A stretch of DNA of 64,000 nt, from contig MGFR01000002.1 of NCBI GenBank assembly GCA_001791995.1, positions 36,457 to 100,456 of the forward strand, read 5' to 3'. The notes beneath the pieces were generated by a model. The model did no database searches and was not told where the DNA came from. It saw nothing but the letters and a program-made list of their open reading frames with translations. The stretch comes from Candidatus Woesebacteria bacterium RBG_13_46_13 (GTDB lineage: Bacteria; Patescibacteriota; Microgenomatia; UBA8517). The position numbers and the translations under genes are program-made. Each line of letters starts with the position of its first letter. Positions within the stretch are counted from its first letter, which is position 1. Shown piece after piece: positions 9,284 to 30,977 of the stretch.

Positions 9284-9369
9284 TATATACAAGATACTTA
9301 TATACGCTTTTGCCTCGGCACGAATTATGGTTCGACTTGGCGCACCACGTGCTGTCTTGGGACAGAGAT

Positions 9370-12280: not shown

Positions 12281-12320
12281 GCTGAAAATTGTAACAAATT
12301 GATTTATAATTGTCTACTTT

Positions 12321-14432: not shown

Positions 14433-14540
14433 TGTTCGTAATCGCCCCCTTCCGGTATAGAGTAAGTTTACTCATACAAATCACCTGGCCTATTTTACCA
14501 GTTTTAGTCAATTAAGAAAACTGGTATCATATTCTCTGCC

Positions 14541-15545
14541 GTGGCAAAGAAAGCCTTAATAACGGGAATAACCGGCCAAGACGGAAGTTATCTGGCGGAA
14601 CTTCTACTAAAAAAAGGATACGAGGTCTCGGGTATTGTCAGAAAATCCAGCCACCTCCGCTACGCAAACATCGAGCTTATCCAGGAAAGTCTTAATTTAA
14701 TTCAGGCGGACCTGCTCGACCCAGTATCGCTAAGGGAGGCAATTCAAATTGTAAAACCGGACGAGATTTACAATTTGGCTTCCCAGTCCGTACCCAGGGA
14801 AAGCTTCAAACAACCTATTCACACCGCAGAAATTACGGGCCTTGGCGCTCATCGGGTACTGGACGCGGCTTGGGATATTGTTCCCAAAGCCAAATTCTAC
14901 CAGGCATCCTCGAGCGAAATGTTCGGTTGGGTAAAAGAAATTCCCCAAAATGAGGAAACTCCCTTTAATCCGGCTAACCCCTACGCCGCGGCGAAGCTGT
15001 ATGCCCACAATATTGCCAAAATCTACAGAGAGAGTTACAAAATGTTTATCTCCTGCGGCATACTTTTTAACCATGAATCCCCCAAAAGATGGCTGGGATT
15101 TGTGACCCAAAAAGTCGCTTACGCGGCGGCTTGCGCGAAGCTGGGAGTCAAAAACTCTCCTTACTTAAACGAGGAAGGGGAGCCCATCGTCAAGAATGGG
15201 AAAGTTGCGATGGGCAACCTGGACGCAAAACGGGATTGGGGCTATGCCGGCGATTTCGTCATAGCCATGTGGTTGATGTTGCAGCAGGATAAACCCGACG
15301 ATTTTGTCGTTGCCACCGGCGAGACCCATACCATCAAGGAGCTCTGCGAGAAAGCCTACGATTATGTCGGTCTTAACTGGAAGGATCATGTTGAGGTTGA
15401 CGAAAGATTCGTCAGACCTACCGAGACCGGACCCTTGGTGGGTGATTACGCCAAAGCCAAGAAGGTTTTGGGATGGGAACCCAAGGTCGGTTTTGAAAAG
15501 GTCATCGAGATGATGGTTGATGCCAACATCGCCCGCCTGAAGTAG
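14541..15545 (+). CDS. gmd: GDP-mannose 4,6-dehydratase
   Basis: KKALITGITGQDGSYLAELLLKKGYEV... with the SDR extended fold YAAAKLYAH and the conserved gmd C-terminal region. Confidence 0.9.
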   Translation: MAKKALITGITGQDGSYLAELLLKKGYEVSGIVRKSSHLRYANIELIQESLNLIQADLLDPVSLREAIQIVKPDEIYNLASQSVPRESFKQPIHTAEITGLGAHRVLDAAWDIVPKAKFYQASSSEMFGWVKEIPQNEETPFNPANPYAAAKLYAHNIAKIYRESYKMFISCGILFNHESPKRWLGFVTQKVAYAAACAKLGVKNSPYLNEEGEPIVKNGKVAMGNLDAKRDWGYAGDFVIAMWLMLQQDKPDDFVVATGETHTIKELCEKAYDYVGLNWKDHVEVDERFVRPTETGPLVGDYAKAKKVLGWEPKVGFEKVIEMMVDANIARLK

Positions 15546-15546
15546 A

Positions 15547-16173
15547 CTAGCTCCTTTTCGGATTTCTCGCAAATACAAGAACCTTGTTTCCGCTTGCTCC
15601 CAAATCCGCAGAATTCGGCCGAAAGGTATCCCGGATCGCGTTTGAGGCAATTGTTCGCTGGAAACCGTGCTCGTGCATCCAGCGAGCGGTTGTTTGCAGA
15701 GCCTCCCGAAGATACCCTTGGGCCTCGAAGGTGCGGTTGTCGAAGACCAGAAGAAAAAACTGGTATTTACTGGGATCCAGGAATTTTTCCAACTCGTCAT
15801 TGATTATATTTCCCTCGACCACGTCTTTGGGGTTGGGGGCAACGGAGATCAGGCAGTCGGGCTTAAATTCGGGTACCTCGGCGGCGAGATCGGAATACAC
15901 AAACATCCTTGCGTCTTTATGGACGGAAACCCCGGATTGAACACCAACTGTCTCTCCCGAGGCTGCGATTGCCGGGTCGGCTCCCACCCAGACATCGCCC
16001 TTTCCGAGCTTTACCGAAAGTCTGGGTTTTTCCCCACAGCCAATATCCAGGTAGCTTCTGGCTGGTTTTTCCACAAAAGCGGAGACAAACTCTTGCCGGG
16101 AGGGGTTGAGCCTCGCGGCCACATAGGGGGTTCTAAGCGTTTCGATTTGATTTCCTGCTTCCATAATGTACAA
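15547..16173 (-). CDS. Hypothetical protein, possible Rossmann-fold methyltransferase-like
   Basis: 208 aa. SYLDIGCGEKP resembles SAM-binding motif I. Otherwise unassigned. Confidence 0.4.
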   Translation of the reverse strand: MYIMEAGNQIETLRTPYVAARLNPSRQEFVSAFVEKPARSYLDIGCGEKPRLSVKLGKGDVWVGADPAIAASGETVGVQSGVSVHKDARMFVYSDLAAEVPEFKPDCLISVAPNPKDVVEGNIINDELEKFLDPSKYQFFLLVFDNRTFEAQGYLREALQTTARWMHEHGFQRTIASNAIRDTFRPNSADLGASGNKVLVFARNPKRS

Positions 16174-16714
16174 TATAGGACTAATTATGAGCCCTGAACG
16201 AACTAATTATAACGGAATTCCCACAGGAATTGTCATTGAGAAAGCAGAATCTCCCGAAAGGCAGAAGATCCTAGCGGAGATAGTTAAGTATGGGATGGGC
16301 TTTTCCCGGGGGAAAATTCAGGATGCAAGCTCGATTTCTCTTCAGGTAGCCGCACAGCGACCCGTCTTTCTGGATTATCTTTCCTATATAATCTTCGGCA
16401 GGATAGTCAGGCTTTCAACCCAATGCCCGGAAGAGAAAAAAGAGGTGTGTATATCGGTAAAGTTTGCCCATGAGCTTGGAGAGTATATTAACCTCCAAGT
16501 TACTAAGTCTCGGAAAAACGGATTAAAGAGTGTGGATTTTACCCAAGAGGAAGGAAGAGTCATTGTTCAAAAATCCTTCGAACACATTAATGCAGATGCC
16601 ATTTTTGCACAGCTTAGCGAGTCGGAAATGAGTTTGGTCAGAAGGTTCGGTTCGACGATTATTCCTGATAATCCAAAGGCAGAGCAAAGACCCAGCGAAT
16701 TCCGCCTCGAATAA
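16166..16714 (+). CDS. Hypothetical protein
   Basis: 182 aa ORF, no recognisable motifs. Confidence 0.4.
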   Translation: MYNIGLIMSPERTNYNGIPTGIVIEKAESPERQKILAEIVKYGMGFSRGKIQDASSISLQVAAQRPVFLDYLSYIIFGRIVRLSTQCPEEKKEVCISVKFAHELGEYINLQVTKSRKNGLKSVDFTQEEGRVIVQKSFEHINADAIFAQLSESEMSLVRRFGSTIIPDNPKAEQRPSEFRLE

Positions 16715-16721
16715 ACCTCCT

Positions 16722-17396
16722 TTAGTGAACGGGGATGACGTTTTGAGAGTAGGTGTTGTTTCCCTCGTTTGATTCATCGACCCCATTGTCTACATCGGCA
16801 ATTGCCCTGGTGGTATAGTTTGCCCATCCTCCATAAGTGTAGTTACAGAAAACCGTTCTGGCTCCATGGGCGGGGATACTGGCAACGTTTGCCCTGCAGG
16901 CATAGGTTGGTGCCGAAATTGTAGCCCACCATTCCCAGTAAAAGTCTCCGGAGGCAACATTACCCTGGTTGGAAATTATTACGGTTAAGGTAAAAGCTTC
17001 TCCCATAACCGGAGGGTGATTGAAAGAGTAGCTGGAGATATAAAGGTCGGCGCGGTTGTCCGGAGTCGGAGTGGGTGTCGAAGTTGGTGTGGGCGAGGCA
17101 GTTGCGGTAGGTTTCTTGGTAGGGGAAAGGGTTGTTGTTTCCGTAGGCGTTTCGGTTACGCTAATCTCTGCCCCCTCAACGGTTGGAGTCGGAGTTATGT
17201 TTTCGGTTGAAACAGGGGTCTTTTTGGATGAGCCGAGAAAGAAAGCTACTCCTGCGATAATTACCAATACCAGAACAACAATGATTACAATTAAGGTTTT
17301 ATTTGTCGGGCCGGGTTTTGGATTTTCTTGGGGAGCGGGAATTACCTGTTCATCCTCCATTGCCAGGATAATAGAATGGATACAAGCCGAAGTCAA
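16722..17396 (-). CDS. Membrane-anchored surface protein with Thr/Pro-rich linker and CARDB-like C-terminal domain
   Basis: N-terminal TM (LIVIIVVLVLVIIAGVAFFL), then TPTPTVEGAEISVTETPTETTTLSPTKKPTATASPTPTSTPTPTP linker. The C-terminal segment ...ISNQGNVASGDFY...VDESNEGNNTYSQ resembles CARDB domains. Confidence 0.5.
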   Translation of the reverse strand: MTSACIHSIILAMEDEQVIPAPQENPKPGPTNKTLIVIIVVLVLVIIAGVAFFLGSSKKTPVSTENITPTPTVEGAEISVTETPTETTTLSPTKKPTATASPTPTSTPTPTPDNRADLYISSYSFNHPPVMGEAFTLTVIISNQGNVASGDFYWEWWATISAPTYACRANVASIPAHGARTVFCNYTYGGWANYTTRAIADVDNGVDESNEGNNTYSQNVIPVH

Positions 17397-17428
17397 GAGA
17401 GTATATTTTGTGGTAATATCTACTTGGT

Positions 17429-18475
17429 ATGCCTGCGAAAGCCAAGAAAACCCCCAAGGTCAAACTCCAGACGGATAAAGATGCCTTAAAAAAGCTTAAG
17501 TTGGTCGCCGTTGCCTATTCGCACGTCGAGCGTGAATGGTTTCCCACCGAGGATGCTTATACCGCGGAGGTAGAGGTCGAAGAGCGTGCCCAGGAGGTAA
17601 TCGAGGAAGTGCAAAAACTGGGGATAGAAGTGAAGGGCTACAAGGGCGACCAGTATTTTTTGACGAACCTCTTGGTGGATAAACCCGACTTGGTTATCAA
17701 TCTGGTCGATACGCTCCGGGGGAAGGATAGGCTGCAGACTTCGGTTCCGGCGGCTTTGGAACTTTCCAACATTCCCTATACCGGCGCAGGCATGGAGGGG
17801 CTGATTATCGGCAACAGCAGAAACCTGACAAAAAGGCTGTTTATCGCCTACGAAATTCCGACTCCCCAGTTTCAGTTTATTAGAAGGGCAGGGACCGCGG
17901 TTCTGGAGAGCTTGGGCCTGCCTTTAATCGTAAAACTCAACGAAAGCGGGGGATCAGTGGGAATAGATAACAACGCAGTTAAAGAAACCTTAAAAGACGC
18001 CCAGAAAAAGGTAGACGACATGATATCGGCTTATAAAATACCGGTGGTGGTCGAAAGATTTATCGACGGACCGGAAATTACGGTTGTGGTTTTTGACGAC
18101 GGGGTAAAAAAGCAGGTGTTTATGGGCGAGAAGATTTTCAGGAAGAAGCCCGACGGAAAGCACTTCTTTACCAGTATTGAGTCCTACGACGATTTCGATT
18201 CCTACAGATACAAATTTGTGGCGGAGCCTCTGCAGGGGAAAATTGCGACTCTTGCGGTCAGGGCCTTTAACGGACTGCACCACAAAGACTATGCCAAGTT
18301 CGATATCAGGGTAGAGGAGACAACCGGTATTCCGTATTTTACCGACAGCAATCCCAATACCGCTTTCGGACCGGATAAGGGTCTGCCCATGACCGAGGTA
18401 ATGAATTTATATGGAATTGCCTTCCAAGATACCCTGACCAGCATGTTATCCAAATATGCAAAAACTCTTCAGTAA
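17429..18475 (+). CDS. D-alanine--D-alanine ligase-family ATP-grasp enzyme with N-terminal extension
   Basis: LPLIVKLNESGGSVGI (Ddl-like ATP-binding strand), ...DIRVEETTGIPYFTDSNPNTAFGP... (Ddl-like C-terminal motif), GPEITVVVFDDG. Divergent from canonical ddl at the N-terminus. Confidence 0.65.
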   Translation: MPAKAKKTPKVKLQTDKDALKKLKLVAVAYSHVEREWFPTEDAYTAEVEVEERAQEVIEEVQKLGIEVKGYKGDQYFLTNLLVDKPDLVINLVDTLRGKDRLQTSVPAALELSNIPYTGAGMEGLIIGNSRNLTKRLFIAYEIPTPQFQFIRRAGTAVLESLGLPLIVKLNESGGSVGIDNNAVKETLKDAQKKVDDMISAYKIPVVVERFIDGPEITVVVFDDGVKKQVFMGEKIFRKKPDGKHFFTSIESYDDFDSYRYKFVAEPLQGKIATLAVRAFNGLHHKDYAKFDIRVEETTGIPYFTDSNPNTAFGPDKGLPMTEVMNLYGIAFQDTLTSMLSKYAKTLQ

Positions 18476-19055
18476 CCCTTATTTCCCGGAACTTTCAAGA
18501 GTTACCCAGATAACCTCGTCGCACTGCGGACCGGCGACCCTGGAGATGCTTTTGGGCTTTTTGGGTATCGAAGTTGATCAGGAGGCGATTGTGGAGACAA
18601 CGGGGGTTGGCCAAAAGCTGCCTGTTCACGGCATGATAATCTCCGAGATGGGGGAGGCCGTCAGGAAGCTGGCTCCCCAAGTGCAGTTTTGGTTTAAGGC
18701 CAATTCCAGCTTAAACGAGTTAAGCCAGTTGGTAAGAAATTATAAATACCCTGTAGGAATAGAATGGCAAGGGGTCTTTTACGAGGATGCGGATGATGAC
18801 AACGGACACTACAGCGTGATTACCCATATCGACACAACCAACAATATCATTATGGTTGCCGACCCCTACAAGCGCTTTGCTGGAACCGACAGAATTTTCC
18901 ACATTCTGGAGTTTGAGGACAGATGGTGGGACGAAAACGAGATTAAGGACCCCTATACGGGAAAGGTAAGCCAGGAGAGAGATTATCACATGATGTTTGT
19001 GATTACCCCCAAACAAGAAAATTTTCCCGAAACTTTTGAGATGATACGGGGTTAG
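18456..19055 (+). CDS. Papain-fold cysteine peptidase-like protein (C39-like / BtrH-N-like)
   Basis: QITSSHCGPATLEMLL has Gln, then Cys-Gly in the nucleophile position, and a downstream GHYSVITHID candidate catalytic His. Overlaps the preceding ATP-grasp gene by 20 nt, suggesting translational coupling. Confidence 0.5.
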   Translation: MQKLFSNPYFPELSRVTQITSSHCGPATLEMLLGFLGIEVDQEAIVETTGVGQKLPVHGMIISEMGEAVRKLAPQVQFWFKANSSLNELSQLVRNYKYPVGIEWQGVFYEDADDDNGHYSVITHIDTTNNIIMVADPYKRFAGTDRIFHILEFEDRWWDENEIKDPYTGKVSQERDYHMMFVITPKQENFPETFEMIRG

Positions 19056-19058
19056 CCC

Positions 19059-19376
19059 CTAGCGGAAAAGGATCAGAAGAACCACGGTTAAAATTCCGAA
19101 GAAGAGAAGCCAGGCGGTAGTTGCCAGAACAACCCGAATGGCTTTTTTGGTTTCTTTTTTCTCCCACCACAGGAGAAACGGATAATACCCGAAAAGAAGC
19201 GTACAGATAATTACCGAAAGAACAAAGATTAGAAGGAAGAGGGTCGGCCCCAGGAAATTATCCATGTTACCGAAGATGGAATTTCCGCCCCACATCAGAA
19301 GACCGATCAAGCCCACATATACGGCTAATCCTAAGGCCTGAAGAAAAGCGATAAATTCCAGCGATAGTTTTTTCAT
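19059..19376 (-). CDS. Small membrane protein (3 TM helices)
   Basis: 105 aa hydrophobic ORF. Confidence 0.4.
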   Translation of the reverse strand: MKKLSLEFIAFLQALGLAVYVGLIGLLMWGGNSIFGNMDNFLGPTLFLLIFVLSVIICTLLFGYYPFLLWWEKKETKKAIRVVLATTAWLLFFGILTVVLLILFR

Positions 19377-19424
19377 TGCCCCTTTAATTATACAGAGTCA
19401 TATCAACTCGTCTATGTTATACGG

Positions 19425-20321
19425 TTATCTTCGGGAACGAACAAGAAACGCAATTGATGCCAGCAAGAGTATTCCTGCTGATGCAATTATTGCGGCGGAC
19501 TTAAAAGGTGAGCTTGGGGTTGGGGGAGTTATTGTGACTTCGCGGGTTATCTTTTCAGAGACGGTTGGCGTCGGGGAGGAGGTTATAACTGGCTTTTGTG
19601 TCGGAGTGGGTGAGTTTACGGCAAGAGCGGCTTTTGCCGATAATTCATTAGAGATCGGTCCAAGGGTGCACCCGTTTCCCGGAATCACTATAAAATAGTA
19701 AATTACACCGGTACCAAGACTTCCTACCGTATACGAGGTGGTGTTTGCTCCTCCAACGTTGGGGTTGCCAAAAATATAAGTTCCCTTTTTCGTTCCGTAA
19801 TAAACGGTATAAAAAGTTACAGGGTCGGTTGCCTTCGTCCAGGTGAGTTTGATCTGGGAATTAGATATCGGAGTTGCCGAGACAAGTTTAGGAGGGCCAC
19901 CCGGGGCGGCGTCGGTGCAGGTGGTGGAATAAAAAGTCACGTGTCCGATTCCCGGGAGGGCAACGTTCTGGGTTTTATCGACGATATCGAGCGAATCGAC
20001 TCCTTCCTTGGTCGATTTGATGTAAAAAACTGCCTTACCCGAGCTATCGAGCTTGTTTGATTCAGGAGCGACTATAGCCGAGGGATCATCTGTCACCACA
20101 ACGCTTACTTCCTCTCCTGCCAGGGGAGTGCCGTAGGCATCCTTCACAGTAACGGTTAATACCGCCTCGGTTTTCCCATCGGCCGGTACTCTATCGGAGC
20201 CGGACATCGTAGCTACGATACTGGAACTATGAAAATCAGGAGAATTGTAAGCTGCCGTCCATTTGGAAAAAGCAAAAAAGAAAGCAAGAAAAAGAAAGGC
20301 TATTAATAATATTTTTCTCAT
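19425..20321 (-). CDS. Secreted/cell-surface protein with Ig-like/FN3-like beta domains and C-terminal TM anchor
   Basis: N-terminal signal (MRKILLIAFLFLAFFFAFS). Beta-rich repeats (TVTVKDAYGTPLAGEEVSVVVTD; KLTWTKATDPVTFYTVYYG is FN3-like). C-terminal SAAIIASAGILLLASIAFLVRSRR anchor. Confidence 0.5.
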   Translation of the reverse strand: MRKILLIAFLFLAFFFAFSKWTAAYNSPDFHSSSIVATMSGSDRVPADGKTEAVLTVTVKDAYGTPLAGEEVSVVVTDDPSAIVAPESNKLDSSGKAVFYIKSTKEGVDSLDIVDKTQNVALPGIGHVTFYSTTCTDAAPGGPPKLVSATPISNSQIKLTWTKATDPVTFYTVYYGTKKGTYIFGNPNVGGANTTSYTVGSLGTGVIYYFIVIPGNGCTLGPISNELSAKAALAVNSPTPTQKPVITSSPTPTVSEKITREVTITPPTPSSPFKSAAIIASAGILLLASIAFLVRSRR

Positions 20322-20385
20322 ATATTTATTATAGACAGGTACCCTGAGAGGGTGAAGTATTGAAGGCAGTAATTCTGAAGTTGGC

Positions 20386-20482
20386 AGGCCTTAGTATCCG
20401 AACTTCGAACAATTTGGCACGAAGTGAGCTCGTTTGACATAAACAAAATGCGAGGATTTATAAATCCTCACCCAGTTTTTGC
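20386..20482. repeat. Island intergenic repeat, full copy 1 (core A ACTTCGAACAATTTGGCAC, core B AATCCTCACCCAG)
   Basis: About 80% identical to 22264-22362. Core B lies about 60 nt upstream of the start of the 20538 gene. Confidence 0.6.
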
Positions 20483-20537
20483 TTAAAGATATAAATTGCA
20501 TTAGAATCGCCTGGCTAGTAAATTAAAAAAAGAGCGT

Positions 20538-21194
20538 ATGAAAGCCATTTTGGGAAGAAACAAACAACTTATGGATGTTTTTCTAGATTTAGACCCACTA
20601 CCTGTCAATAATACTGATGAGGAAGTCGGTAGGAGTTTTTTATTTAGATTTCGACCTAATTTAGCAAACATTGGAAAACGAACGAAGCAAATAAAAAGGA
20701 TTGGGATGGCATACGATACCCCAAGTGTTGCGATGTACGATCAAGCAAAAGATCTTTATAGTCTCGGATATTTTGTCTCTTCAATAATAGTTTGTAGGTC
20801 TACTGCAGAATATTTGGCGTTTGAGATATTTCTTGAGGAGGTTGAGCTGGAAGGTAAAACGGAGATTATAGAGTCAGTAGCGGAGAGTTTAGATTTTAGA
20901 AAAGTAGTTAACGAGTTTCTTTATAATCCAAAAAAAGGTTTTGCGTATATTAACAAGGACACGCACGACATATTTAATAATCTTTATTCATTGGCTAACA
21001 ATTGGGTTCATCCTAGAAAGATCAAGGATAAGGTTAAAATCGAAAAAGTTGCATTTAAGTCACTGGAAATGCTAGGTTCTTTACTTTCATCTCTTCGAGA
21101 TGTGATGAAAGATTATAAAGTTGTTAAAGGTTCACTAGTAAGGAAAGCTACTGCAAGAAAGAAAGTTAGGCCAATTATTTTGGGACACAAGTAA
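20538..21194 (+). CDS. Hypothetical protein (AT-rich island)
   Basis: 218 aa ORF in a low-GC segment, no family recognised. Confidence 0.45.
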   Translation: MKAILGRNKQLMDVFLDLDPLPVNNTDEEVGRSFLFRFRPNLANIGKRTKQIKRIGMAYDTPSVAMYDQAKDLYSLGYFVSSIIVCRSTAEYLAFEIFLEEVELEGKTEIIESVAESLDFRKVVNEFLYNPKKGFAYINKDTHDIFNNLYSLANNWVHPRKIKDKVKIEKVAFKSLEMLGSLLSSLRDVMKDYKVVKGSLVRKATARKKVRPIILGHK

Positions 21195-21204
21195 ACAGAA
21201 TAAG

Positions 21205-22197
21205 TTAGAGCCCGAGGAGAAGCAGCTTACTTGGATCTAATTGTTCAACAAAATGATATTCCCCAGTTTTTCCGTCCTTCAGCTTATATGTAATTTTTTC
21301 GGAATTACGAACAGTCATTGAACCCAACATTACAATTTTGCCATCAATTATGGTCCCTATATGTCCGGTTGGGAATAATAGACCGTTTTGACTAACAATT
21401 GCGGCCAAAATGTGACCTCCAACGGTTGCAAACTTGTATTTTATGCTCTCTTTGTTTACGAAGCTCATCAATGTTTCGGCATCCTTGTACATTACCGACT
21501 CCAAGTTCACCGCATTTCTTTCCCCGAATTCAAGCTCTGAAAGTAAAAGGGGTGGGACAACGACCGTTACAGACTTTTGATTTGGATGAAAAGCGACATA
21601 AGAATACAAAGGCACCTCATTTTTTACAAAAGTACAGTTCCTAACATCAATTTCCAGCGTAATCATTCTCGTTTGGGGATAGTCTATTTCAACATACATA
21701 CCTTTTGTTAATTGGCCGTTATTTTTTGACATTGCATTTACAAGACCATCAATTATGTCCTGGTCGATTGATTGGTGCATATGGGTGCCTTCACCCCTCG
21801 CTTTTAAGGGATTAGACATATTGTTTCCTAGAATTGAGCTTTCTATGGTTTGCTTTTTAGTTGGGTTAAAACCTGCGATTATGAGGGCGACATTTCCATA
21901 CCTTCCTGTCGAATTGACGTATTCACTTATTATAGTTTTTAGATCAGTGTCAATAATACTTTCGAGCTCATCAAAAGAAGAACTCTCTTTAATTTTAGAT
22001 TTGAGGTCATTTAGTATAAAAGAAGCAGGGGCAGCGTCTCCGGCTTCAAGAGCATCGATTTGATGGTTGAGCACGAATGCTTTTATCAAATCATCATCAT
22101 ATTTATCTGGTCTACCATCCGAGTATCGAGTTGTGGCTCTAGTATCAGAAACAAGAAACATTTTCTTGGCCAGATGAACCCCCAGAATCAGTGACAT
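21205..22197 (-). CDS. Hypothetical protein (AT-rich island); N-terminus uncertain
   Basis: The track ORF runs to 22311 but its 5' end overlaps the conserved intergenic repeat. An internal Met (MSLILGV... or MFLVSD...) is more likely the start. Confidence 0.4.
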   Translation of the reverse strand: MSLILGVHLAKKMFLVSDTRATTRYSDGRPDKYDDDLIKAFVLNHQIDALEAGDAAPASFILNDLKSKIKESSSFDELESIIDTDLKTIISEYVNSTGRYGNVALIIAGFNPTKKQTIESSILGNNMSNPLKARGEGTHMHQSIDQDIIDGLVNAMSKNNGQLTKGMYVEIDYPQTRMITLEIDVRNCTFVKNEVPLYSYVAFHPNQKSVTVVVPPLLLSELEFGERNAVNLESVMYKDAETLMSFVNKESIKYKFATVGGHILAAIVSQNGLLFPTGHIGTIIDGKIVMLGSMTVRNSEKITYKLKDGKTGEYHFVEQLDPSKLLLLGL

Positions 22198-22263
22198 TTG
22201 ACAGATTATAGCATTCCAAATTAAGCACGGGGGACGAGGACTACGTACACTGAATGTGAGGGC

Positions 22264-22362
22264 GGGCCTTAGTATATCAACTTCGAACAATTTGGCACAA
22301 GATGAGCTCATTTGATGTAGATAAAGTCCAACAATTTCTTAATCCTCAACCAGCAATTGCTT
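22264..22362. repeat. Island intergenic repeat, full copy 2
   Basis: GGCCTTAGTATATCAACTTCGAACAATTTGGCACAAGATGAGCTCATTTGATG...TTTCTTAATCCTCAACCAGC. Core B is 48 nt upstream of the 22401 gene. Confidence 0.6.
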
Positions 22363-22400
22363 ACAATTAACCGGCAATATAGAATTTAGGCATCGCTAAA

Positions 22401-22793
22401 ATGAAAAGATTGTCCCCAAATGAAAAATGGAACAGATTTAATAAAAAACTAGAGGAGTTGATGAAATCGAATGATTTTTATGGTTTGGGAGTAATTTATC
22501 AGGAAATGGCCAACTTCTTAAATAATGAAGGGAAAGATTCCAAAGAAATGCTTAATAAAGCCCATGAGATGAAGCTCACACATCACAGAAATTATATAAA
22601 GAATTTACGATACGATTCTCCAATCTGTGTAGGGGTTGAGGTTCGTTGCACAGATGATAGTTGTAGAAGCTGTAAAAGCTTGCAAGGTAAAGTTTTTGAT
22701 TTTGATAAAGCCATAGAGACAAATCCTTTACCTGTTAGAAATTGTAGCCATGAATATGGTTGCAGGTGTGTTTATCTTCCTGTAGCTAATTGA
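22401..22793 (+). CDS. Hypothetical protein with Cys-rich C-terminus (possible zinc ribbon)
   Basis: 130 aa; the C-terminal segment ...CVGVEVRCTDDSCRSCKSLQGKV...CSHEYGCRCVYLP carries several Cys pairs. Confidence 0.45.
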   Translation: MKRLSPNEKWNRFNKKLEELMKSNDFYGLGVIYQEMANFLNNEGKDSKEMLNKAHEMKLTHHRNYIKNLRYDSPICVGVEVRCTDDSCRSCKSLQGKVFDFDKAIETNPLPVRNCSHEYGCRCVYLPVAN

Positions 22794-22807
22794 GTGGAGA
22801 AAGGTCA

Positions 22808-22835
22808 AGAGTTTCTTAATCCTCGGCCAGCCTTC
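22808..22835. repeat. Island intergenic repeat, half copy (core B only: TTTCTTAATCCTCGGCCAGCC)
   Basis: 40 nt upstream of the 22869 gene. Confidence 0.5.
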
Positions 22836-22868
22836 GGTCTTACCTAATTTCTGATAAAATATGGCTGT

Positions 22869-23390
22869 ATGAAGATGGATCAGCTGATAGACAAGAAGAA
22901 GTTGAAACATCCAGACTTTTGGTTTGTTAAGGCACACGCATACGCTTCAGCATGCCTTTTTATATTAGAAGAATTTTCCAGGGCGATTAAAGACAAAGAC
23001 GGGGAGAATAGGACTAGACTAAAAGAAGTTACTCTTAGCCTCTCTTCCGTTGGGGCAACTCCCTATTTAGTCGGAATTTCTAGCGAATTGTATATGAAGG
23101 GGTACTTAATATCTAAAGGAGAAAAACCTGACGCGCTAAAGAGGGTAGGTCACAACTTAAAAACCATTAGAGAAAAATGTGCAACTTTTGGAGACCCGAG
23201 GTTTAATGATAAAGACCTAATCTTTCTTGCCGATACTCTTGGCAAATATTTGATGGAGGATGGGGGAGTTAGATATCCAGATAAAAATGACTTACCTATT
23301 TATATACCAATTTTTAAAAACATTTTAAATATGTTTCATAAATTAAGTATTGAAGTGTCAGACACCCCTGCTAAAGGAGAAGATACTTGA
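22869..23390 (+). CDS. Hypothetical protein (AT-rich island)
   Basis: 173 aa, predicted helical, no confident family. Confidence 0.45.
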   Translation: MKMDQLIDKKKLKHPDFWFVKAHAYASACLFILEEFSRAIKDKDGENRTRLKEVTLSLSSVGATPYLVGISSELYMKGYLISKGEKPDALKRVGHNLKTIREKCATFGDPRFNDKDLIFLADTLGKYLMEDGGVRYPDKNDLPIYIPIFKNILNMFHKLSIEVSDTPAKGEDT

Positions 23391-23392
23391 TT

Positions 23393-23440
23393 TAAATAGT
23401 TCCACTTCGAACAATCTGGTGCAGGATAAGCCTTGAGATG
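23393..23440. repeat. Island intergenic repeat, half copy (core A-like: CACTTCGAACAATCTGGTGCAGGATAAGCC)
   Basis: Similar to the first half of the full copies. Confidence 0.45.
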
Positions 23441-23579
23441 GGGAAGATACAATAATTTCTAGGTTCAACATATGTTTCAATAACGATAACCAGCAACTAA
23501 ACTGGGTGAAATTCAAATATTTATTTCAAATGGAACCAATGTTTTTTCAAGTTATGATAAATCTTTATAGACTAGATAT

Positions 23580-24497
23580 TTAATATTTCTTAAAATCAGT
23601 AAGTCTTTCAAAAATCTTTTCCATAGCCTCAGCAAAAGTACCAGAAATAGGAATAGTATTTCCGCTCCTGCCAGAACTAGTATTCCATTCTTCAAACTTT
23701 TGTTTATCACCCACATAGAAAATGTTCGCATGGGTTTCTCTTAGAGGATCCCATATATGATAATCTTGTGGGTAAGGCTTTACTCCCACAATTATTACTT
23801 GTTTTACATTGAGTATTAGATTTTTCCACTCCTTTTGGATATGCTCAATAAAATCAAAACCTAATGGAGCCGGTTTATTCTCTGTAAAAAGAGCCATTAC
23901 TGGATACAAAGGGGTATCACTAGTTAATTTTTCAGTTACTTTTTCGGGGGTGTTTAGTGAGTATATTGGCGCTTTTATTCGCATATCTGAACTAAAATTG
24001 ACATACCTATTCATTCCCTCAAAATCGAGGAACCAGTTGCATGAACCATGAAGTTTTATAAGTAATATACCTCCTTTATTGGGGGGAATAAGATAATTTG
24101 TTTTAAAACCATTTCTAGTAAGTTCTCCGTCAAGCAAGCAATCATAATTAAGTGTTGATAGTATTGTGTCATCGCTTTTTATCTTAATAAGATATTTAAT
24201 AATCTCACCATATCGGGTTTCATTTTTTGGAGTGAATCTATTAAAGTAAATACCTAATTGTTGGAGCAATAAAGAAGATATATCGCTGTGTTTTTTCCAT
24301 AATGAGTCCATACCTTTTTCAAAATTTTGCAAAAATAAAGTATTGAGATCTTCTGGCAGCTTTCCCCAGGTGTCCGGAAACGTAGAAACTAATATAGAGT
24401 GAAGTTCTCCTCCCAATGGAGGTTGATGGGGAAAAATGTCCCCGCAGTCATGACTTGCACCAGCACCAAATAAAAATACGGTATTAATCTTACCCAT
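23580..24497 (-). CDS. SIR2-like domain protein (SIR2_2 / DUF4020-type NAD-binding fold), standalone
   Basis: N-terminal VFLFGAGASHDCGDIFP matches the SIR2_2 signature (LFxGAGxS...G.P), and LIKLHGSCNW supplies the HGS motif. 305 aa, no fused effector or sensor domains. Confidence 0.6.
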   Translation of the reverse strand: MGKINTVFLFGAGASHDCGDIFPHQPPLGGELHSILVSTFPDTWGKLPEDLNTLFLQNFEKGMDSLWKKHSDISSLLLQQLGIYFNRFTPKNETRYGEIIKYLIKIKSDDTILSTLNYDCLLDGELTRNGFKTNYLIPPNKGGILLIKLHGSCNWFLDFEGMNRYVNFSSDMRIKAPIYSLNTPEKVTEKLTSDTPLYPVMALFTENKPAPLGFDFIEHIQKEWKNLILNVKQVIIVGVKPYPQDYHIWDPLRETHANIFYVGDKQKFEEWNTSSGRSGNTIPISGTFAEAMEKIFERLTDFKKY

Positions 24498-24675
24498 TTT
24501 AAGCCCGCCTCGTTCATCAAGTATCCAGGTACATGTCCAAATACCATGGAAATCTACTTAAAATTCTCTTCGCCCTTGACTTTTCTATATAATATCACTT
24601 GAGGCTAGCAGGGGCTAGAAACTATGTAGGGAACTTTTTCAAGGTTGAATTTCACCAAGTTGATATGATTTATTA

Positions 24676-24906
24676 ATGAAGTGCTATTATATGAGTAAGA
24701 TGAAAAAGGAATCTGTAATAGGAATCCTAATATTGTTGGGTTTGGTTTATTGGTTTGCGATTAGACCATCAAACATAAGAAGCCATTGTCACAATCTTGC
24801 TGATGAAAACGCAAGAATTTGGGCAACGTCGGTAAAGGATGGTAAGGAAAGTGAAATATATGACCGTTCACTGGAAAAGTGCATCAATGAAAAAGGATTG
24901 AGGTAA
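24676..24906 (+). CDS. Small secreted/membrane-anchored protein
   Basis: 76 aa with an N-terminal hydrophobic segment (SVIGILILLGLVYWFAI) and two Cys. Confidence 0.3.
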   Translation: MKCYYMSKMKKESVIGILILLGLVYWFAIRPSNIRSHCHNLADENARIWATSVKDGKESEIYDRSLEKCINEKGLR

Positions 24907-25021
24907 GAGGCTTCATCCGCCCAGATAAGAAACTTCTATTATCTAAAAGCACCACCTTCGGGTATGCACCGTAGTATAATTATCTTGTAGGTAAAGAGAG
25001 TTCTCTAAGTAAAAGAAGGGA

Positions 25022-25237
25022 TTGAGGATGATCGGTACTAAAGTTATCTTAACAGTATTATTTAATGTTGCGGGTATTGTAATTATCGCTTGGGGTATGT
25101 TCAACGACAAAATTTGGGTTATGGCAGTCGGCGGTGCGCTTACGGGCATAGTAATTGGGCTTATGTACGACGACTTGTTAGGTCAGATTAGGGATGTGAA
25201 GATTGACGAAGAAGAGGAAGAAGAGGAGGACCAGTGA
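25022..25237 (+). CDS. Small 2-TM membrane protein with poly-Glu C-terminal tail
   Basis: 71 aa; ...KIDEEEEEEEDQ. Confidence 0.35.
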   Translation: MRMIGTKVILTVLFNVAGIVIIAWGMFNDKIWVMAVGGALTGIVIGLMYDDLLGQIRDVKIDEEEEEEEDQ

Positions 25238-25247
25238 GGAGCTACCA

Positions 25248-25451
25248 ATGAAAGAGGATGAAATTAAAAAAGAAAAAAAGAAGTTAAATAAGTATTTTAT
25301 ATTCTTTTTGATATCTACGGTTGGGTCAATGGTTCTCGGAGATGATAGCCAACTAGGTATGATATTTTCGGCGTTATCACTCATTTCTTTAATTGTTTTA
25401 ATTGCAAAAGGGGTTGACTACAAGAGGAAAGTTAACGAAATAAAAAAGTAG
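25248..25451 (+). CDS. Small membrane protein (start uncertain; track ORF begins at 25203)
   Basis: A lysine-rich N-terminus followed by two hydrophobic helices. Confidence 0.3.
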   Translation: MKEDEIKKEKKKLNKYFIFFLISTVGSMVLGDDSQLGMIFSALSLISLIVLIAKGVDYKRKVNEIKK

Positions 25452-25456
25452 TCCTG

Positions 25457-25527
25457 CAGGGGCGGAGAGAATCGAACTCCCATTGCGGGTTTTGGAGACC
25501 CGCGTCCTACCATTGAACGACGCCCCT
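25457..25527 (-). tRNA. trnW: tRNA-Trp (anticodon CCA)
   Basis: Reverse complement: AGGGGCG TC GTTCAATGGTAGGAC G CGGGT CTCCAAA ACCCG CAAT GGGAG TTCGATT CTCTC CGCCCCT G. The acceptor stem pairs, the anticodon loop is CU-CCA-AA, and the T-loop is TTCGATT. Confidence 0.85.
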
Positions 25528-25565
25528 AGACAAGCGCAATTATACCAATTTTTGGGTTTGGATGC

Positions 25566-25742
25566 TTATTTCAGCTTCGAGGATTCTTTATGGGGGGTAA
25601 CCTTCCGGCAGGTTCTGCAGTACTTGTTAAGCAGCAGCTTCTTTTCTTCCATGTTGATCTTGTTCCTTTCGGTAAGATAGTTCTGGTTCTTACAGACGGA
25701 ACAAAGCAAGGCTACATGTTCTCGCGCACCTTTTTTTGCCAT
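25566..25742 (-). CDS. rpmG: 50S ribosomal protein L33
   Basis: Manual translation gives MAKKGAREHVALLCSVCKNQNYLTERNKINMEEKKLLLNKYCRTCRKVTPHKESSKLK, 58 aa, with the CxxC...CxxC L33 zinc ribbon. Missing from the ORF track (under 60 aa). Confidence 0.8.
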   Translation of the reverse strand: MAKKGAREHVALLCSVCKNQNYLTERNKINMEEKKLLLNKYCRTCRKVTPHKESSKLK

Positions 25743-25784
25743 ACGTTGCGTATTTTACCTAAAGCAGGCTCTCTAAACAATAGG

Positions 25785-25856
25785 GAGCCGAGGGTGGGAA
25801 TCGGACCCACGACCTAGTCATTACCAATGACTTGCTCTACCACTGAGCCACCTCGG
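25785..25856 (-). tRNA. tRNA-Thr (anticodon GGT)
   Basis: Reverse complement: GCCGAGG TG GCTCAGTGGTAGAGC A AGTCA TTGGTAA TGACT AGGTC GTGGG TTCGATT CCCAC CCTCGGC T. Acceptor and anticodon stems pair; anticodon GGT. Confidence 0.85.
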
Positions 25857-26009
25857 CGCATGAGAATTATATCAAAAACTTGCTATACTCAAAGAAATGA
25901 GCCGTACCCAAGCCCTGCTTCTGATTCTTGCCGCAGCCTTCTTTATTGTCCTGATCTACGTTGTCAGCCACCTTACGGCCTTTGGCCCTTCGGGAGTCTT
26001 CAAATAGGG

Positions 26010-26094
26010 TGCTGGGACTAGGATTCGAACCTAGGTAGGCCTTTCGACCGCCAGATTTACAGTCTGGTGCGATTGTCCGCTCCGCCATCCCAGC
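26010..26094 (-). tRNA. tRNA-Tyr (anticodon GTA, long variable arm)
   Basis: Reverse complement: GCTGGGA TG GCGGAGCGGACAATCGC ACCAGA CTGTAAA TCTGG CGGTCGAAAGGCCTACC TAGG TTCGAAT CCTAG TCCCAGC A, a type II tRNA. Confidence 0.85.
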
Positions 26095-26095
26095 T

Positions 26096-26170
26096 TGGAG
26101 CCGACGAGTGGATTCGAACCACTGACTTGCTGTTTACAAAACAGCTACTCTACCGCTGAGTTACGCCGGC
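26096..26170 (-). tRNA. tRNA-Thr (anticodon TGT), CCA encoded
   Basis: Reverse complement: GCCGGCG TA ACTCAGCGGTAGAGT A GCTGT TTTGTAA ACAGC AAGTC AGTGG TTCGAAT CCACT CGTCGGC T CCA. Confidence 0.85.
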
Positions 26171-26174
26171 GCAA

Positions 26175-26215
26175 GGCAAATTATACCACAATCTGAAGCT
26201 GATTATCGGAAATTT
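26175..26215 (-). promoter_or_regulatory. Probable promoter of the tRNA-Thr-Tyr-Thr-rpmG-tRNA-Trp transcription unit (extended -10 TGTGGTATAAT)
   Basis: Minus strand: TTCCGATAATCAGCTTCAGATTGTGGTATAATTTGCCTTGC immediately precedes the tRNA-Thr 5' end. TATAAT lies at 26180-26185. Confidence 0.4.
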
Positions 26216-26401
26216 GGAGAATGGAATGACCCTGCCTTGAAGGCTCGGGAAGAAGTTTTCCCCGCAACTTGCAGGTGGGTGGGCTCAGCCCTAGCCCGCA
26301 GGCTAAAGCGATTTGCCCTCCCAAGAAAACTTTCAGTGAGGAAAATTTCCCCAAGTCTCCTCAACAGGGTCACCTTAATTGTATCAAGCGGGGTCAATAA
26401 A

Positions 26402-27079
26402 CTAAATGATACCGCTGCCGGGGATGAGGATCCTAAGGACAAAATTCAGTACGGGGGCGACTATCAACGAGAAGATAGATGCTCCGCCGAAGGTGGGGAA
26501 AATCAAAAACAGCAGTAGAATCATGCCGTATCTTTTGAGGAATAAATCCACAGAGAGGGCCTGTTGTCTGGGGAGTAAGCCTACCAGGACCTTTCCGCCG
26601 TCCAAGGGGTGGATAGGGATTAAATTGAAGATAGCCAGTATGACATTAAGAGCTATGAATGGATAGAAAAGTGCCGAATAGTAAGACAGGGGGGAGAAAG
26701 GGGAAGAGGAGAGTCTGACAATGAGGGACAGAATAGAGGCGAGTGTTAGGTTGGCTAGGGGTCCGGCAAAAGAGATAAGGGCTGAATCCCTTCTTGGATT
26801 TTTTAGGTTATAAGGATCGAAGGCAACAGGCTTTGCCCAACCGAAGGGGATAATGTATCTAAAGCCTTCAAGCCCTGGAATTGTTGCAAGACTCCTAAGG
26901 ATAACCAAAACTAAAAGTAGGGTGGTTCCGATCGGGTCGTAGTGGACGATGGGGTTTAAGGAAAGCCTGCCCATTAACCGTGGAGTAGGGTCTCCAAGCC
27001 TATCGGCCATCCAAGCATGGGCGGCTTCGTGGATGGTGATGGCAACAACAAACGCCAGTATCCAGACAATTATCGACAT
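26402..27079 (-). CDS. Peptidase M50 family (site-2 protease-like) integral membrane metalloprotease
   Basis: HEAAHAWMADRLGD is the HExxH motif in a TM helix. Multi-pass membrane protein. LDGG motif near the C-terminus. Confidence 0.7.
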   Translation of the reverse strand: MSIIVWILAFVVAITIHEAAHAWMADRLGDPTPRLMGRLSLNPIVHYDPIGTTLLLVLVILRSLATIPGLEGFRYIIPFGWAKPVAFDPYNLKNPRRDSALISFAGPLANLTLASILSLIVRLSSSPFSPLSYYSALFYPFIALNVILAIFNLIPIHPLDGGKVLVGLLPRQQALSVDLFLKRYGMILLLFLIFPTFGGASIFSLIVAPVLNFVLRILIPGSGII

Positions 27080-27151
27080 GGGCTTTACGTAATCAGTGTT
27101 CTAATAGTATAATACTTCGACTTCAAGGCTAAAAGTCCCTTGAGTAAAGAA

Positions 27152-27400
27152 ATGGCATATATTTGCGACAATTGCGGCAAGAGCATCGTTTCAGGGCGTT
27201 CGCAGCACCACAGGCGGGGTGTTGCCGGGAGACGTTGGGCAAAAAGAGCCCAATCAACCCTAAGAACATTCAAGCCGAACTTGCAGAAGGCTGCGATTCT
27301 GGTTGCCGGCAAGAAGGTTTCGATGAAACTCTGTACCAGGTGTCTTAAAAGATTCAAGAAAGAAGGAAAACTTTACTCTGCAAAGACTGCGTCGGCGTAA
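27152..27400 (+). CDS. rpmB: 50S ribosomal protein L28
   Basis: MAYICDNCGKSIVSGRSQHHRRGVAGRRWAKRAQSTLRTFKPNLQKA... has the L28 family pattern (C-x2-C-G-K...SH...R.F.PNLQ). The track ORF starts 12 nt earlier. Confidence 0.75.
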   Translation: MAYICDNCGKSIVSGRSQHHRRGVAGRRWAKRAQSTLRTFKPNLQKAAILVAGKKVSMKLCTRCLKRFKKEGKLYSAKTASA

Positions 27401-28314
27401 CCTCTTTTAAATTCGTCCCAGGATACCGGACTTTTTCCTTCAAGCTGAACCAAATCCAATTCTAATTTCCCGTCACCCTCGTGTGCCTTTAATATTTTAA
27501 TTCTCAACTTCTGATTCCTGATTTTTATTTTCGTCCAAGCACACGGCCAGGGATAGAGCGCCCGGATAAAATTGTTGAGATTGCCGGGGTTGGGGACAAG
27601 AGCCAGATCTCTGACAAAGGAAACCGACCTTTCTTCCTTTATCTTGTCCGACCCGGAAAGGGCGGCAGCCAGGTATTCGGGAGGGATAAATCCATCCTCT
27701 CGCTTAACCAATAAAGTATATGATGCTTCGTCGTGGTTTTGGGCTCTGGGAGTAATCTTGCCCTTTATAAAGACAGGGATAAGTTCGACCAAGACTTCGG
27801 CGCCCCTTAAAAAAAGTTTTGCCCTGAGAGTTTCGCAGCTATCATCGGCTGCGATTTCTTCCTTGAACTGGGAAACAATCGGTCCGTGGTCCATCTGGCT
27901 ATCAAGCTTAATTATGGTTACTCCCGTTTGGGTCAGCCCCGAAGCAATTGCCGCCTGTACAGGGGATGCTCCCCTGAATTTAGGCAGCAGCGAGGGGTGG
28001 ATGTTTAATATTCCGTATTTGAATCTTTTGATTACGGCCTCGGGAATTATTGAGCCATATGCAGCCAGGATACCCAAATCCGCCTCCGGGCCTTTTTCCA
28101 ACAAATCCGTATTCTTATAAAATGTCGGAATCTTTCTTTGATGCGCCCAACCATCCACGGGGGAATAAGTGACAATTTTCTTCCTGCCGACAGGCTTTGG
28201 AGGTTGAGTGACAACAGCCACGACCGAGGAGCCGAGGTTGACCTTAATCTTTTTATGGATATTCTCGACAACCGGTAAAACATACTCTGGTGTTCCGAAG
28301 AAGACGATTTTCAT
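27373..28314 (-). CDS. fmt: Methionyl-tRNA formyltransferase
   Basis: MKIVFFGTPEYVLPVVENI..., ILNIHPSLLPKFRGASPVQAAI. Adjacent to def. Confidence 0.9.
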   Translation of the reverse strand: MKIVFFGTPEYVLPVVENIHKKIKVNLGSSVVAVVTQPPKPVGRKKIVTYSPVDGWAHQRKIPTFYKNTDLLEKGPEADLGILAAYGSIIPEAVIKRFKYGILNIHPSLLPKFRGASPVQAAIASGLTQTGVTIIKLDSQMDHGPIVSQFKEEIAADDSCETLRAKLFLRGAEVLVELIPVFIKGKITPRAQNHDEASYTLLVKREDGFIPPEYLAAALSGSDKIKEERSVSFVRDLALVPNPGNLNNFIRALYPWPCAWTKIKIRNQKLRIKILKAHEGDGKLELDLVQLEGKSPVSWDEFKRGYADAVFAE

Positions 28315-28318
28315 TTTC

Positions 28319-28852
28319 CTAAATCAGTTCAACCTCCACCCATTCTCCGCCCTCCATTTTATAAAGGGTTTTCTTCTGTTCCAGGAGTCTGTCGACGAAC
28401 ATGATCCCGTTTAAATGGTCGATTTCGTGTTGGACGATCTGGGCGGTAAAACCCGTAAACTCCTCCACTTTTTCTTTTCCCTCGGGAGTAAGGTATTTGA
28501 TCTTGACGGTGGTGGCTCTTTTGAGAGGGGTGTAGTAGTTGGGTAGAGAAAGACAGCCTTCCAGAATCGAATGCTCTTTGTGGGATGCATAACCCTGTTT
28601 TTTGGAAACTTCGACGATTTCGGGGTTAATTACCGGCACTATTTCTTTGCCCTTGGCCATAACGAAAACTCGTAGGTTAATTCCTATCTGGCAAGCGGCC
28701 AGACCCACTCCTTCCGGATCCTTTTGAGCGGATAGGGTGTCGCTTAAGTCTTTAATGAGGTTGGTAACTTTTTTGTCGACCTTTTTGACCGGTTTTGATA
28801 TTCGTCTTAAGACCGGGTCTTTTGACCCGACAATTTTTCTAATCATGCCCAA
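28319..28852 (-). CDS. def: Peptide deformylase
   Basis: GVGLAACQIGINLRVFV, EGCLSLP and QHEIDHLNG are the three def motifs. Confidence 0.9.
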   Translation of the reverse strand: MGMIRKIVGSKDPVLRRISKPVKKVDKKVTNLIKDLSDTLSAQKDPEGVGLAACQIGINLRVFVMAKGKEIVPVINPEIVEVSKKQGYASHKEHSILEGCLSLPNYYTPLKRATTVKIKYLTPEGKEKVEEFTGFTAQIVQHEIDHLNGIMFVDRLLEQKKTLYKMEGGEWVEVELI

Positions 28853-28861
28853 TTATATCAT

Positions 28862-30913: not shown

Positions 30914-30977
30914 TTTTGAGCCTTGCAATGAACTTTGCCAAAAGATATCCTTGCCTTGCCTAACAAACTGACGATAT

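Follow-up and report, generated by a model that had tools for sequence, protein, structure and literature searches.

What does a conserved intergenic repeat of about 100 nucleotides (nt) do beside genes that differ from one genome to the next? The question is raised by a 64,000-nt stretch of the Candidatus Woesebacteria bacterium RBG_13_46_13 genome (contig MGFR01000002.1, positions 36,457 to 100,456; hereafter the window), in which four copies of such a repeat, which we call the module, lie in a low-GC island next to a tRNA-Trp gene. A reading of the sequence by itself, to which we refer as the original prediction, had described the repeats and offered two explanations: a shared bidirectional promoter or operator, or the remnants of recombination sites that shuffled the island genes as cassettes. 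We favor the former, and consider the repeats to be probably a portable, bidirectional promoter and regulatory module that belongs to a hypervariable, tRNA-Trp-linked locus in a clade of the Woesebacteria. Loci in other genomes are referred to below by our own handles (L160, with copies such as L160_2).

The repeat family is real. A repeat search of the window pairs positions 20383-20485 with 22261-22363 over 103 nt at 78% identity without gaps (76% in our pairwise comparison of modules), and it also returns three-copy families for each half of the module. Core A (ACTTCGAACAATTTGGCAC) is present exactly in copies 1 and 2 and with three mismatches at 23404-23422, giving three matches in the window where shuffled sequences yield an expectation of 0.03. 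Core B (TTTCTTAATCCTCAACCAGC) is found in copies 2 and 3, and its short form AATCCTCRNCCAG occurs exactly at 20463, 22341 and 22818; neither core recurs elsewhere in the window. The distances of 40-63 nt that had been reported between core B and plus-strand start codons are correct. As for the two half copies that had been described, the right half (copy 3 in Table 1) stands, and the TGA at 22791-22793 within its initial TTGA is the stop codon of the gene at 22401-22793. The supposed core-A half is instead a degenerate full copy, since a profile of module copies aligns 23386-23477 across the entire module (E 2e-16); downstream of this copy comes the 3' end of a convergent gene. Copy 1 additionally contains a perfect 18-bp palindrome, GAGGATTTATAAATCCTC (20452-20469), that is private to it. 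Similarity reaches past 100 nt on both sides, rightward through a -35/-10 pair to the start codon and leftward, in some relatives, through a leftward -10, so that the unit comprises about 180 nt. We also note a contig from another sample (L022) that is 99.3% identical to the window over 3.35 kb, with two substitutions, and in which a 20-nt deletion (window approximately 20459-20478) takes out the core B of copy 1 and half of its palindrome.

The original prediction had suggested a search for the cores in related genomes, and that search places the module at eight or more other Woesebacteria-type loci, beside differing genes. Counting the window, profile searches (E down to 4e-26) recognize the module in at least nine distinct loci: the window, L087, L160, L013, L020, L174, L192/L193, L194 and L195-197. 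L087 is the same contig as L002, Candidatus Woesebacteria GW2011_GWA1_38_8, retrieved with more flank. These loci were reached by several routes. A scan for the exact core in one genome per species gave 21 matches against a chance expectation that we estimate roughly at 35, and three of the 21 are true whole-module homologues (L002, L013 and L020). A metagenome scan returned mostly chance matches and, among the matches listed, added L087 and L160. L174, L192/L193 and L194 were obtained through homologues of the L33 protein, and L195-197 through homologues of the island gene at 22401-22793. The tRNA-Trp gene could be located in eight of these loci, and there all copies follow its 3' end at a distance of 0.4-10.5 kb and run antiparallel to the tRNA gene. 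Arrays occur in several of the loci: L160 has three copies, L087 two to three and L174 two, while L196 holds one full copy and a weak right-half match (E 0.12). A profile search of the fetched loci did not find the module in relatives L176-L191. Neither 50,697 phage records nor 72,556 plasmid records gave a blastn match to the module, and IMG/VR contained no true copy; a phage or plasmid origin was rejected on these grounds.

Across the family, copies are 60-88% identical. Copy 2 matches L013 at 80% and L192 at 79%, and only L160_2 and L160_3 are closer to one another (88%). Full copies within the window, at 76%, are thus no more alike than copies from different genomes, which argues for long-term constraint over recent duplication. 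Taken together, the sequence comparisons indicate that the module is old and constrained while the genes beside it turn over. Two of the module-bearing contigs, L013 and L020, are labelled as metagenome-assembled genomes of "uncultured Gammaproteobacteria". L013 also carries a Woesebacteria-type tRNA-Thr/Tyr/Thr-L33-tRNA-Trp cluster, and both contigs are probably mis-binned or mislabelled.

The arrangement of the module relative to genes is conserved as well. All nine full copies have a same-strand gene 25-165 nt downstream. The truncated or degenerate copies differ, with five of six abutting a convergent gene at its 3' end and the other one, in L194, preceding a same-strand gene with a Shine-Dalgarno sequence. 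In eight of the ten copies that bear core B, a -10-like hexamer (TAGAAT, TAAAAT, TACAAT or TATAGT) starts 36-39 nt after the sequence AATCC, a geometry reached in none of 20,000 shuffles. A hexamer that resembles a weak -35 (TTGCTT, TTTTAR or TTCGGT) lies 16-17 nt upstream of the -10 and directly after CCAGC, which identifies the right end of the module with the predicted -35 region. The ATG follows the -10 at exactly 8 nt in five copies, including the one ahead of the gene at 22869, and at 15 nt and 30 nt for the genes at 22401 and 20538. These short distances predict that most module-adjacent genes are translated from leaderless or near-leaderless mRNA. In L013, L160_2 and L196 the similarity continues through ATG-RAT-ATG.

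There are also elements that point the other way. The extended -10 motif TGnTATACT is found inside the module in copy 2, L013, L020 and L196, and in both L013 and L174 a leftward TGATATACT precedes the divergent gene's ATG by 6-8 nt. Each of the two divergent genes of the window possesses a TATAAT box of its own, 6-7 nt ahead of the start codon. Comparative evidence thus lends support to the earlier proposal of a shared bidirectional promoter or operator, in the form of the fixed -10, the ATG 8 nt further on, the same-strand gene behind every full copy and the leftward -10s. We additionally considered TTGAYR as the -35 of an internal rightward promoter and rejected it; the hexamer 17 nt further on is TTTnTY, which is not -10-like.

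Promoter elements are not the best conserved part of the module. The central 100 nt exceeds the promoter hexamers in conservation, and does so most of all in a 16-nt core, ACTTCGAACAATYTGG, which is nearly invariant across the nine full copies, with deviations at one or two positions in L174 and L192 and at one position in L160_3 and L196. We propose that the module consists of a conserved center of about 100 nt within a unit of about 180 nt that includes the promoters. The right end of a full copy would run into a sigma-70-type promoter, with its -35 after CCAGC and a TAnAAT -10, and the start codon, usually 8 nt after the -10, would give rise to a leaderless or near-leaderless mRNA. In this way the module would supply expression signals to any unrelated accessory gene that lands downstream, and in several copies the leftward extended -10 (TGnTATACT) would face the divergent gene. 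The center, chiefly ACTTCGAACAATYTGG, may act as the binding platform of a shared regulator, which we regard as the most likely role for it. Finally, the copies would present patches of homology at gene boundaries, where gain, loss and swapping of genes would leave truncated copies behind; we think that they probably serve in this capacity for gene gain, loss and exchange.

A number of observations weigh against this proposal. The core ACTTCGAACAATYTGG is positioned at about -100 to -117 from the inferred rightward start, which is far for a simple operator, and because it is both distant and more conserved than the -35 and -10, promoter function alone does not explain the module. There is no regulator gene linked to the arrays, and a general regulatory motif would not usually be restricted to one locus. 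This same locus is an integration site for serine-recombinase elements in relatives, which leaves some probability to a role in recombination. The copies are homologous, and the statistic on the -10 geometry accordingly measures conservation and not independent recurrence. In L087_1 and L192_1 the nearest good -10 is 60-110 nt beyond the module, so that the module is not always fused to a promoter. In both directions the module's promoters are predictions from sequence.

The island in which the copies reside is strain-specific. It spans about 5 kb, from about 30 nt upstream of the start codon of a Big_1/fn3 surface-protein gene to the 3' end of tRNA-Trp. Contig DATEXV010000004.1 of assembly GCA_035256625.1 is identical to the window, and Candidatus Woesebacteria bacterium RBG_19FT_COMBO_47_8 is 99.9% identical to it. 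In the nearest relatives, L170 and L171, the L33 protein is the same and the DNA on the tRNA side matches at 92-94%, but they have neither the island nor the module: a single 86-aa, high-GC gene lies between tRNA-Trp and the Big_1/fn3 gene. The presence of this gene in place of the island marks the island as a strain-level replacement. Identity to L170/L171 also differs between the two sides of the locus, at 92-94% on the tRNA/L33 side (25455-35766) and about 81% on the other (11631-20334), and this drop suggests that an ancient tract of recombination stops at the tRNA-Trp 3' end.

Turnover of the neighboring genes is evident when arrays are compared, as no neighboring gene is shared between any of the six arrays that we compared. 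Genes in the L160 array encode a GATase, a histidine phosphatase and HAD hydrolases; those in L087 a zinc-ribbon membrane protein and a Y1 transposase; and those in L174 a DUF4379 protein and a CN hydrolase. One island gene, at 22401-22793, can be followed elsewhere. Its homologues (62-74% amino-acid identity) are always within integrative elements, of which the one in L196 encodes a large serine recombinase and those in L198 and L204 encode tyrosine integrases. Compared with L196 7997-8386, the gene is 79.5% identical over 390 nt, and the similarity runs from 4 nt before the ATG to 7 nt before the stop codon. On either side of this stretch the sequences have nothing in common: the window has the module and its predicted promoter, and L196 the end of an upstream gene, although a module is present in L196 3 kb upstream of the homologue in the same tRNA-Trp locus. 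Similarity that is limited to the coding sequence shows module and gene to be separable units. The idea that the repeats bound cassettes holds loosely, in that adjacent genes are unrelated between genomes and one island gene matches another array over its coding sequence only. The further suggestion of circular-permuted cassette insertion is not supported: the order of core B, gene and core A around the gene at 22869 is normal for a tandem array, and the copy at 23386-23477 is a full one.

The 130-aa, Cys-rich product of the gene at 22401-22793 has an additional point of interest, in that its homologue starts one nt after a Macro-domain gene in L198 and after a 284-aa gene in L196. The window gene may be the remaining partner of a two-gene toxin/antitoxin or defense pair. 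The island genes gave no strong family match and include no recombinase; weak matches to SIR2 (the 305-aa protein) and to Proteasome/Ntn (the 330-aa protein) are the only ones, and they hint that the island carries defense-type genes. The features of the locus are collected in Table 1.

Table 1. Module copies, predicted promoters and genes at the tRNA-Trp-linked locus (window coordinates).
Feature	Position	Strand	Remarks
Module copy 1 (full)	20382-20480	+	core A 20402-20420, core B 20463-20475; nhmmer E 1.3e-25
Module copy 2 (full)	22259-22358	+	core A 22280-22298, core B 22335-22354; E 7e-26
Module copy 3 (right half only, from TTGA on)	22790-22834	+	core B 22812-22831; 79% over 38 nt
Module copy 4 (full length, degenerate)	23386-23477	+	core B decayed; E 2.3e-16
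Predicted copy-1 rightward promoter	20479-20507	+	-35 TTGCTT 20479-20484, 17-nt spacer, -10 TAGAAT 20502-20507; ATG 20538
Predicted copy-2 rightward promoter	22357-22385	+	-35 TTGCTT 22357-22362, 17-nt spacer, -10 TAGAAT 22380-22385; ATG 22401
Predicted copy-3 promoter	22833-22860	+	-35 TTCGGT, 16-nt spacer, -10 TAAAAT 22855-22860; ATG 22869
Leftward extended -10 (TGATATACT) inside copy 2	22271-22279	-	
Own extended -10 (TGCTATAAT) of the 330-aa gene	22213-22205	-	7 nt before ATG 22197
Own promoter of the Big_1/fn3 gene, TTCACC-17-TATAAT	20356-20328	-	
Low-GC island with all four copies	20350-25455		GC 34-39% vs 45-52% around
Big_1/fn3 surface-protein gene	19425-20321	-	conserved flank; divergent from copy 1
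218-aa gene behind copy 1	20538-21194	+	no family match
330-aa gene	21205-22197	-	divergent from copy 2; weak Proteasome/Ntn match
130-aa gene behind copy 2	22401-22793	+	homologues inside integrative elements
173-aa gene behind copy 3	22869-23390	+	
305-aa protein gene	23580-24497	-	N-terminal GAGAS motif; weak SIR2 matches (PADLOC)
tRNA-Trp(CCA)	25456-25527	-	3' end is the right island boundary and the anchor of the variable locus in relatives

Could the module be a site-specific recombination site, of integron or att type, at which a recombinase acting in trans shuffles cassettes and the 16-nt core serves for recognition or crossover? The arrays invite this reading, with their same-orientation copies separated by one to four genes at a locus where relatives L191 and L196 carry serine recombinases that overlap tRNA-Trp, and with neighbor genes that are unrelated between arrays. 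Conservation is highest in a short core, as in the core sites of recombinases, and the ends of three truncated copies (L087_2 and L160_1 at (AA)CAAT, L174_2 after AACAATTT) fall within or beside AACAATYT, which is the sole hint of a preferred breakpoint. The other ends are scattered along the module (copy 3 at AGCT/TTGA, copy 4 where core A begins, L020 after GGCACAA and, in L192, a left-end scrap after GCAGG), and a single crossover point is not supported for this reason. The original prediction had recommended looking for an associated recombinase. Large serine recombinases (Resolvase + Recombinase + Zn_ribbon_recom) are encoded in L191 and L196 at 4702-6285 and 14018-15508, respectively, with 3' ends overlapping tRNA-Trp, and this overlap makes tRNA-Trp an attachment site for serine-integrase elements in the clade. 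No recombinase is found in or near the window island or most arrays, and no tyrosine recombinase is present among the island genes or within 10 kb on either side in the gene tables of L170, L172 and L210. The junctions proximal to the recombinases in L191 and L196 are unlike the module, the "empty" site of the closest relatives has no copy at all, and the shared gene moved as a bare coding sequence without module-defined ends. The core shows no dyad symmetry beyond TTCGAA. Likeness to integron attC sites, which had been raised at the outset, found no support either: there is no conserved hairpin on either strand, and no RYYYAAC...GTTRRRY pair exists on either strand of 20301-23600 (shuffle mean 0.7). 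We therefore consider a recombination site to be unlikely. A specific version of it, in which ACTTCGAACAATYTGG is the site of a trans-acting recombinase, perhaps one of the tRNA-Trp serine recombinases, and the arrays form a non-integron gene-capture platform in Patescibacteria that gives each cassette a leaderless promoter, strikes us as a long shot; should the core turn out to be a recombination site, it would represent a gene-capture system of a new kind. Apart from its recombinase, the L196 element was seen to contain HTH_3, DnaD-like, KAP NTPase and SHOCT genes. Local multiplication of a miniature inverted-repeat transposable element (MITE), or of the remnant of an insertion sequence (IS) end with outward promoters, is quite improbable. 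The size of 100-180 nt would fit such an element, as would outward promoter elements at both ends, known from Correia elements and some IS ends, and mobile DNA abounds at the locus (a Y1 transposase in L087, an IS1595 transposase in L194, and integrases). Yet the only terminal inverted repeat is GCAGG/CCAGC (5 nt), no target-site duplications were seen, and copies are 60-80% identical where recent transposition would leave them nearly so in full; in the three species-representative genomes matched, the exact core occurs once per genome and only at the tRNA-Trp locus. Nor does the Y1 (IS200-like) transposase of L087 provide a link, given that it has its own unrelated inverted repeats and that its homologue is absent from the window. 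In the segments L087 447-692 and 2700-3481, this 210-aa transposase is flanked by inverted repeats of 33-35 nt, and a second inverted pair of the same repeat occurs without a transposase, in the manner of a REPIN (REP doublet forming hairpins) or MITE; the repeat is absent from the window and unrelated to the module. An att repeat derived from a tRNA was rejected as well: the module matches the tRNA-Trp 3' end in GCAGG/CCTGC alone and does not fold into a T arm or acceptor stem, and ARAGORN calls no tRNA at the module.

A different set of explanations would have the module act as RNA or protein. It might be a functional RNA or single-stranded DNA element, such as a small RNA, a regulator in a 5' untranslated region, or an antitermination signal resembling ops/JUMPStart in transcripts that begin further upstream. 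A conserved non-coding block between genes is what one would expect of such an element, copy 1 contains its perfect 18-bp palindrome, and several copies could form a small stem between TGG and TTGA. We nonetheless judge this to be very improbable, as single plus-strand sequences fold like their shuffles (z = -0.11 to +0.76) and the minus strand departs from them only for copy 1 (z = -2.19, which fits its private palindrome; copy 2 has z = +1.88). The alignment folds at -1.15 kcal/mol on the plus strand and 0 on the minus strand, and there is no Rfam match at gathering score, nor at E <= 1 over 20300-23600. A TGG-TTGA hairpin upheld by compensatory changes was rejected: the stems that can be drawn differ in register and do not persist from L160_2 to L160_3, and the covariation term is only -0.61 kcal/mol. 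In addition, a conserved -10 downstream of the module places the module outside the main transcript. It is harder still to credit core A as the displaced 3' end of a protein gene or as part of a small open reading frame (plus-strand frame ending AGLSIxTSNNLAxxELV-stop), an explanation that is largely refuted. The same frame and stop do recur in copies 1 and 2, L087_1 and L013, all changes in the Leu codon are synonymous (TTG/CTG/TTA), and the indels of copy 4 are multiples of three. Against this, L013, L160_2 and L160_3 have in-frame stops 7-9 codons upstream with no start between, the frame terminates early in L160 and L174 (NNLV-stop, NDLA-stop), and no long open reading frame ends in the motif within about 200 kb of related loci. 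In ACT TCG AAC AAT every third codon position is invariant while flanking "codons" vary freely, which indicates constraint at the level of DNA. One lead remains from core A itself. A sigma-54 promoter has the form TGGCAC-N5-TTGC (GG-N10-GC), and core A with its continuation (window 20402-20432 and equivalents) reads TGGCAC and then nAGC at the GG-N10-GC spacing in seven of 12 copies. The strongest conservation is upstream of TGGCAC and the L160 copies read TGGTGT or TAGTGT; the sigma-54-like spacing is probably coincidental. Our literature search found no paper linking sigma-54 to Patescibacteria. Two smaller candidates were also set aside: a LexA (Cheo) box in CGAACAAT, for which the second half-site is missing, and the template/variable repeat of a diversity-generating retroelement, as differences among copies are not adenine-specific and there is no reverse transcriptase.

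The wider surroundings of the locus deserve brief mention. The tRNA-Trp gene belongs to a tRNA-Thr/Tyr/Thr/Trp cluster with rpmG at 25456-26170 on the minus strand, and an L10 leader (Rfam RF00557) is found at 9253-9379, also on the minus strand. The secE-nusG-rplKAJL block usually comes after tRNA-Trp; here, about 13 kb of genes including the island lie between the two.

Returning to the promoter and regulatory module that we favor, we believe that it is of value for several reasons. Promoters and regulation in Patescibacteria, the group called the candidate phyla radiation (CPR), have hardly been studied, and the module offers a conserved architecture that can be tested, with a fixed -10, predicted leaderless starts and predicted bidirectionality. 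The 16-nt core is a concrete candidate for a binding site. The module also flags a hypervariable accessory-gene locus at tRNA-Trp and could be of use as a tag for strain-variable genes in metagenomes.

Our literature search found no description of this module family, and we compared it with known systems that resemble it in part. Short intergenic repeats of about 100-150 bp that give promoter elements to their neighbors include the Correia elements and other MITEs or IS ends. The module is like these in being a short intergenic repeat that is predicted to supply promoter elements; it differs from them in having neither terminal inverted repeats nor target duplications, in its confinement to a single locus, and in the age and divergence of its copies. 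Integrons provide another parallel. Clusters of attC sites without an integrase, or CALINs, do not require IntI with attI and Pc, and the module is similar to attC in forming same-orientation repeats of about 60-140 nt between accessory cassettes with no integrase nearby. However, attC sites are conserved in structure and not in sequence, whereas the module is conserved in sequence and not in structure; it also lacks R''/R' core sites, its cassettes have their own predicted promoters, and some of the genes are on the opposite strand.

Closer matches are found among elements defined by their regulatory content. In T4-type phages, hyperplastic regions contain promoter-early stem-loops (PeSLs), which have been described as "mobile regulatory cassettes" (Arbiol et al. 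2010, PMC2839356; Comeau et al. 2014, PMC4122927). A PeSL comprises a promoter and a stem-loop terminator upstream of an orphan gene and mediates modular shuffling (PMC2839356). We list as likenesses that both are repeated intergenic cassettes in a hypervariable region, directly upstream of orphan or accessory genes, and that a PeSL carries a sigma-70-type promoter and the module a predicted one. Insertions, deletions and replacements between close relatives map to PeSLs; for the module the signs of this are indirect, namely the truncated copies, the left-end scrap in L192 and the one gene matched over its coding sequence only. The differences are that a PeSL has a stable stem-loop and ends in a Shine-Dalgarno sequence, while the module has no conserved stem-loop and most of its genes look leaderless, and that the module has about 100 nt of conserved sequence ahead of its -35, is bidirectional by prediction, and resides on a bacterial chromosome beside a tRNA gene. 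Mini-circles have been demonstrated for PeSLs.

Putative mobile promoters (PMPs) are homologous 5' regions of 50-100 nt upstream of non-homologous genes (Matus-Garcia et al. 2012, PMC3488235). The module resembles them in the size of the 5' regulatory region, in its non-homologous downstream genes, and in being shared both within and between genomes. PMPs are, however, defined at 80% identity or more and may be scattered across a genome, in contrast to the module, which has copies of 60-88% identity in a same-orientation array at one locus. Its identities straddle the PMP cut-off, with copies 1 and 2 at 76-78%, copy 2 against L013 and L192 at 79-80%, and L160_2 against L160_3 at 88%. We conclude that the module is a clear, though not unprecedented, case of a reusable expression cassette, and that it extends to a CPR chromosome the idea of the reusable promoter cassette known from phage PeSLs and mobile promoters.

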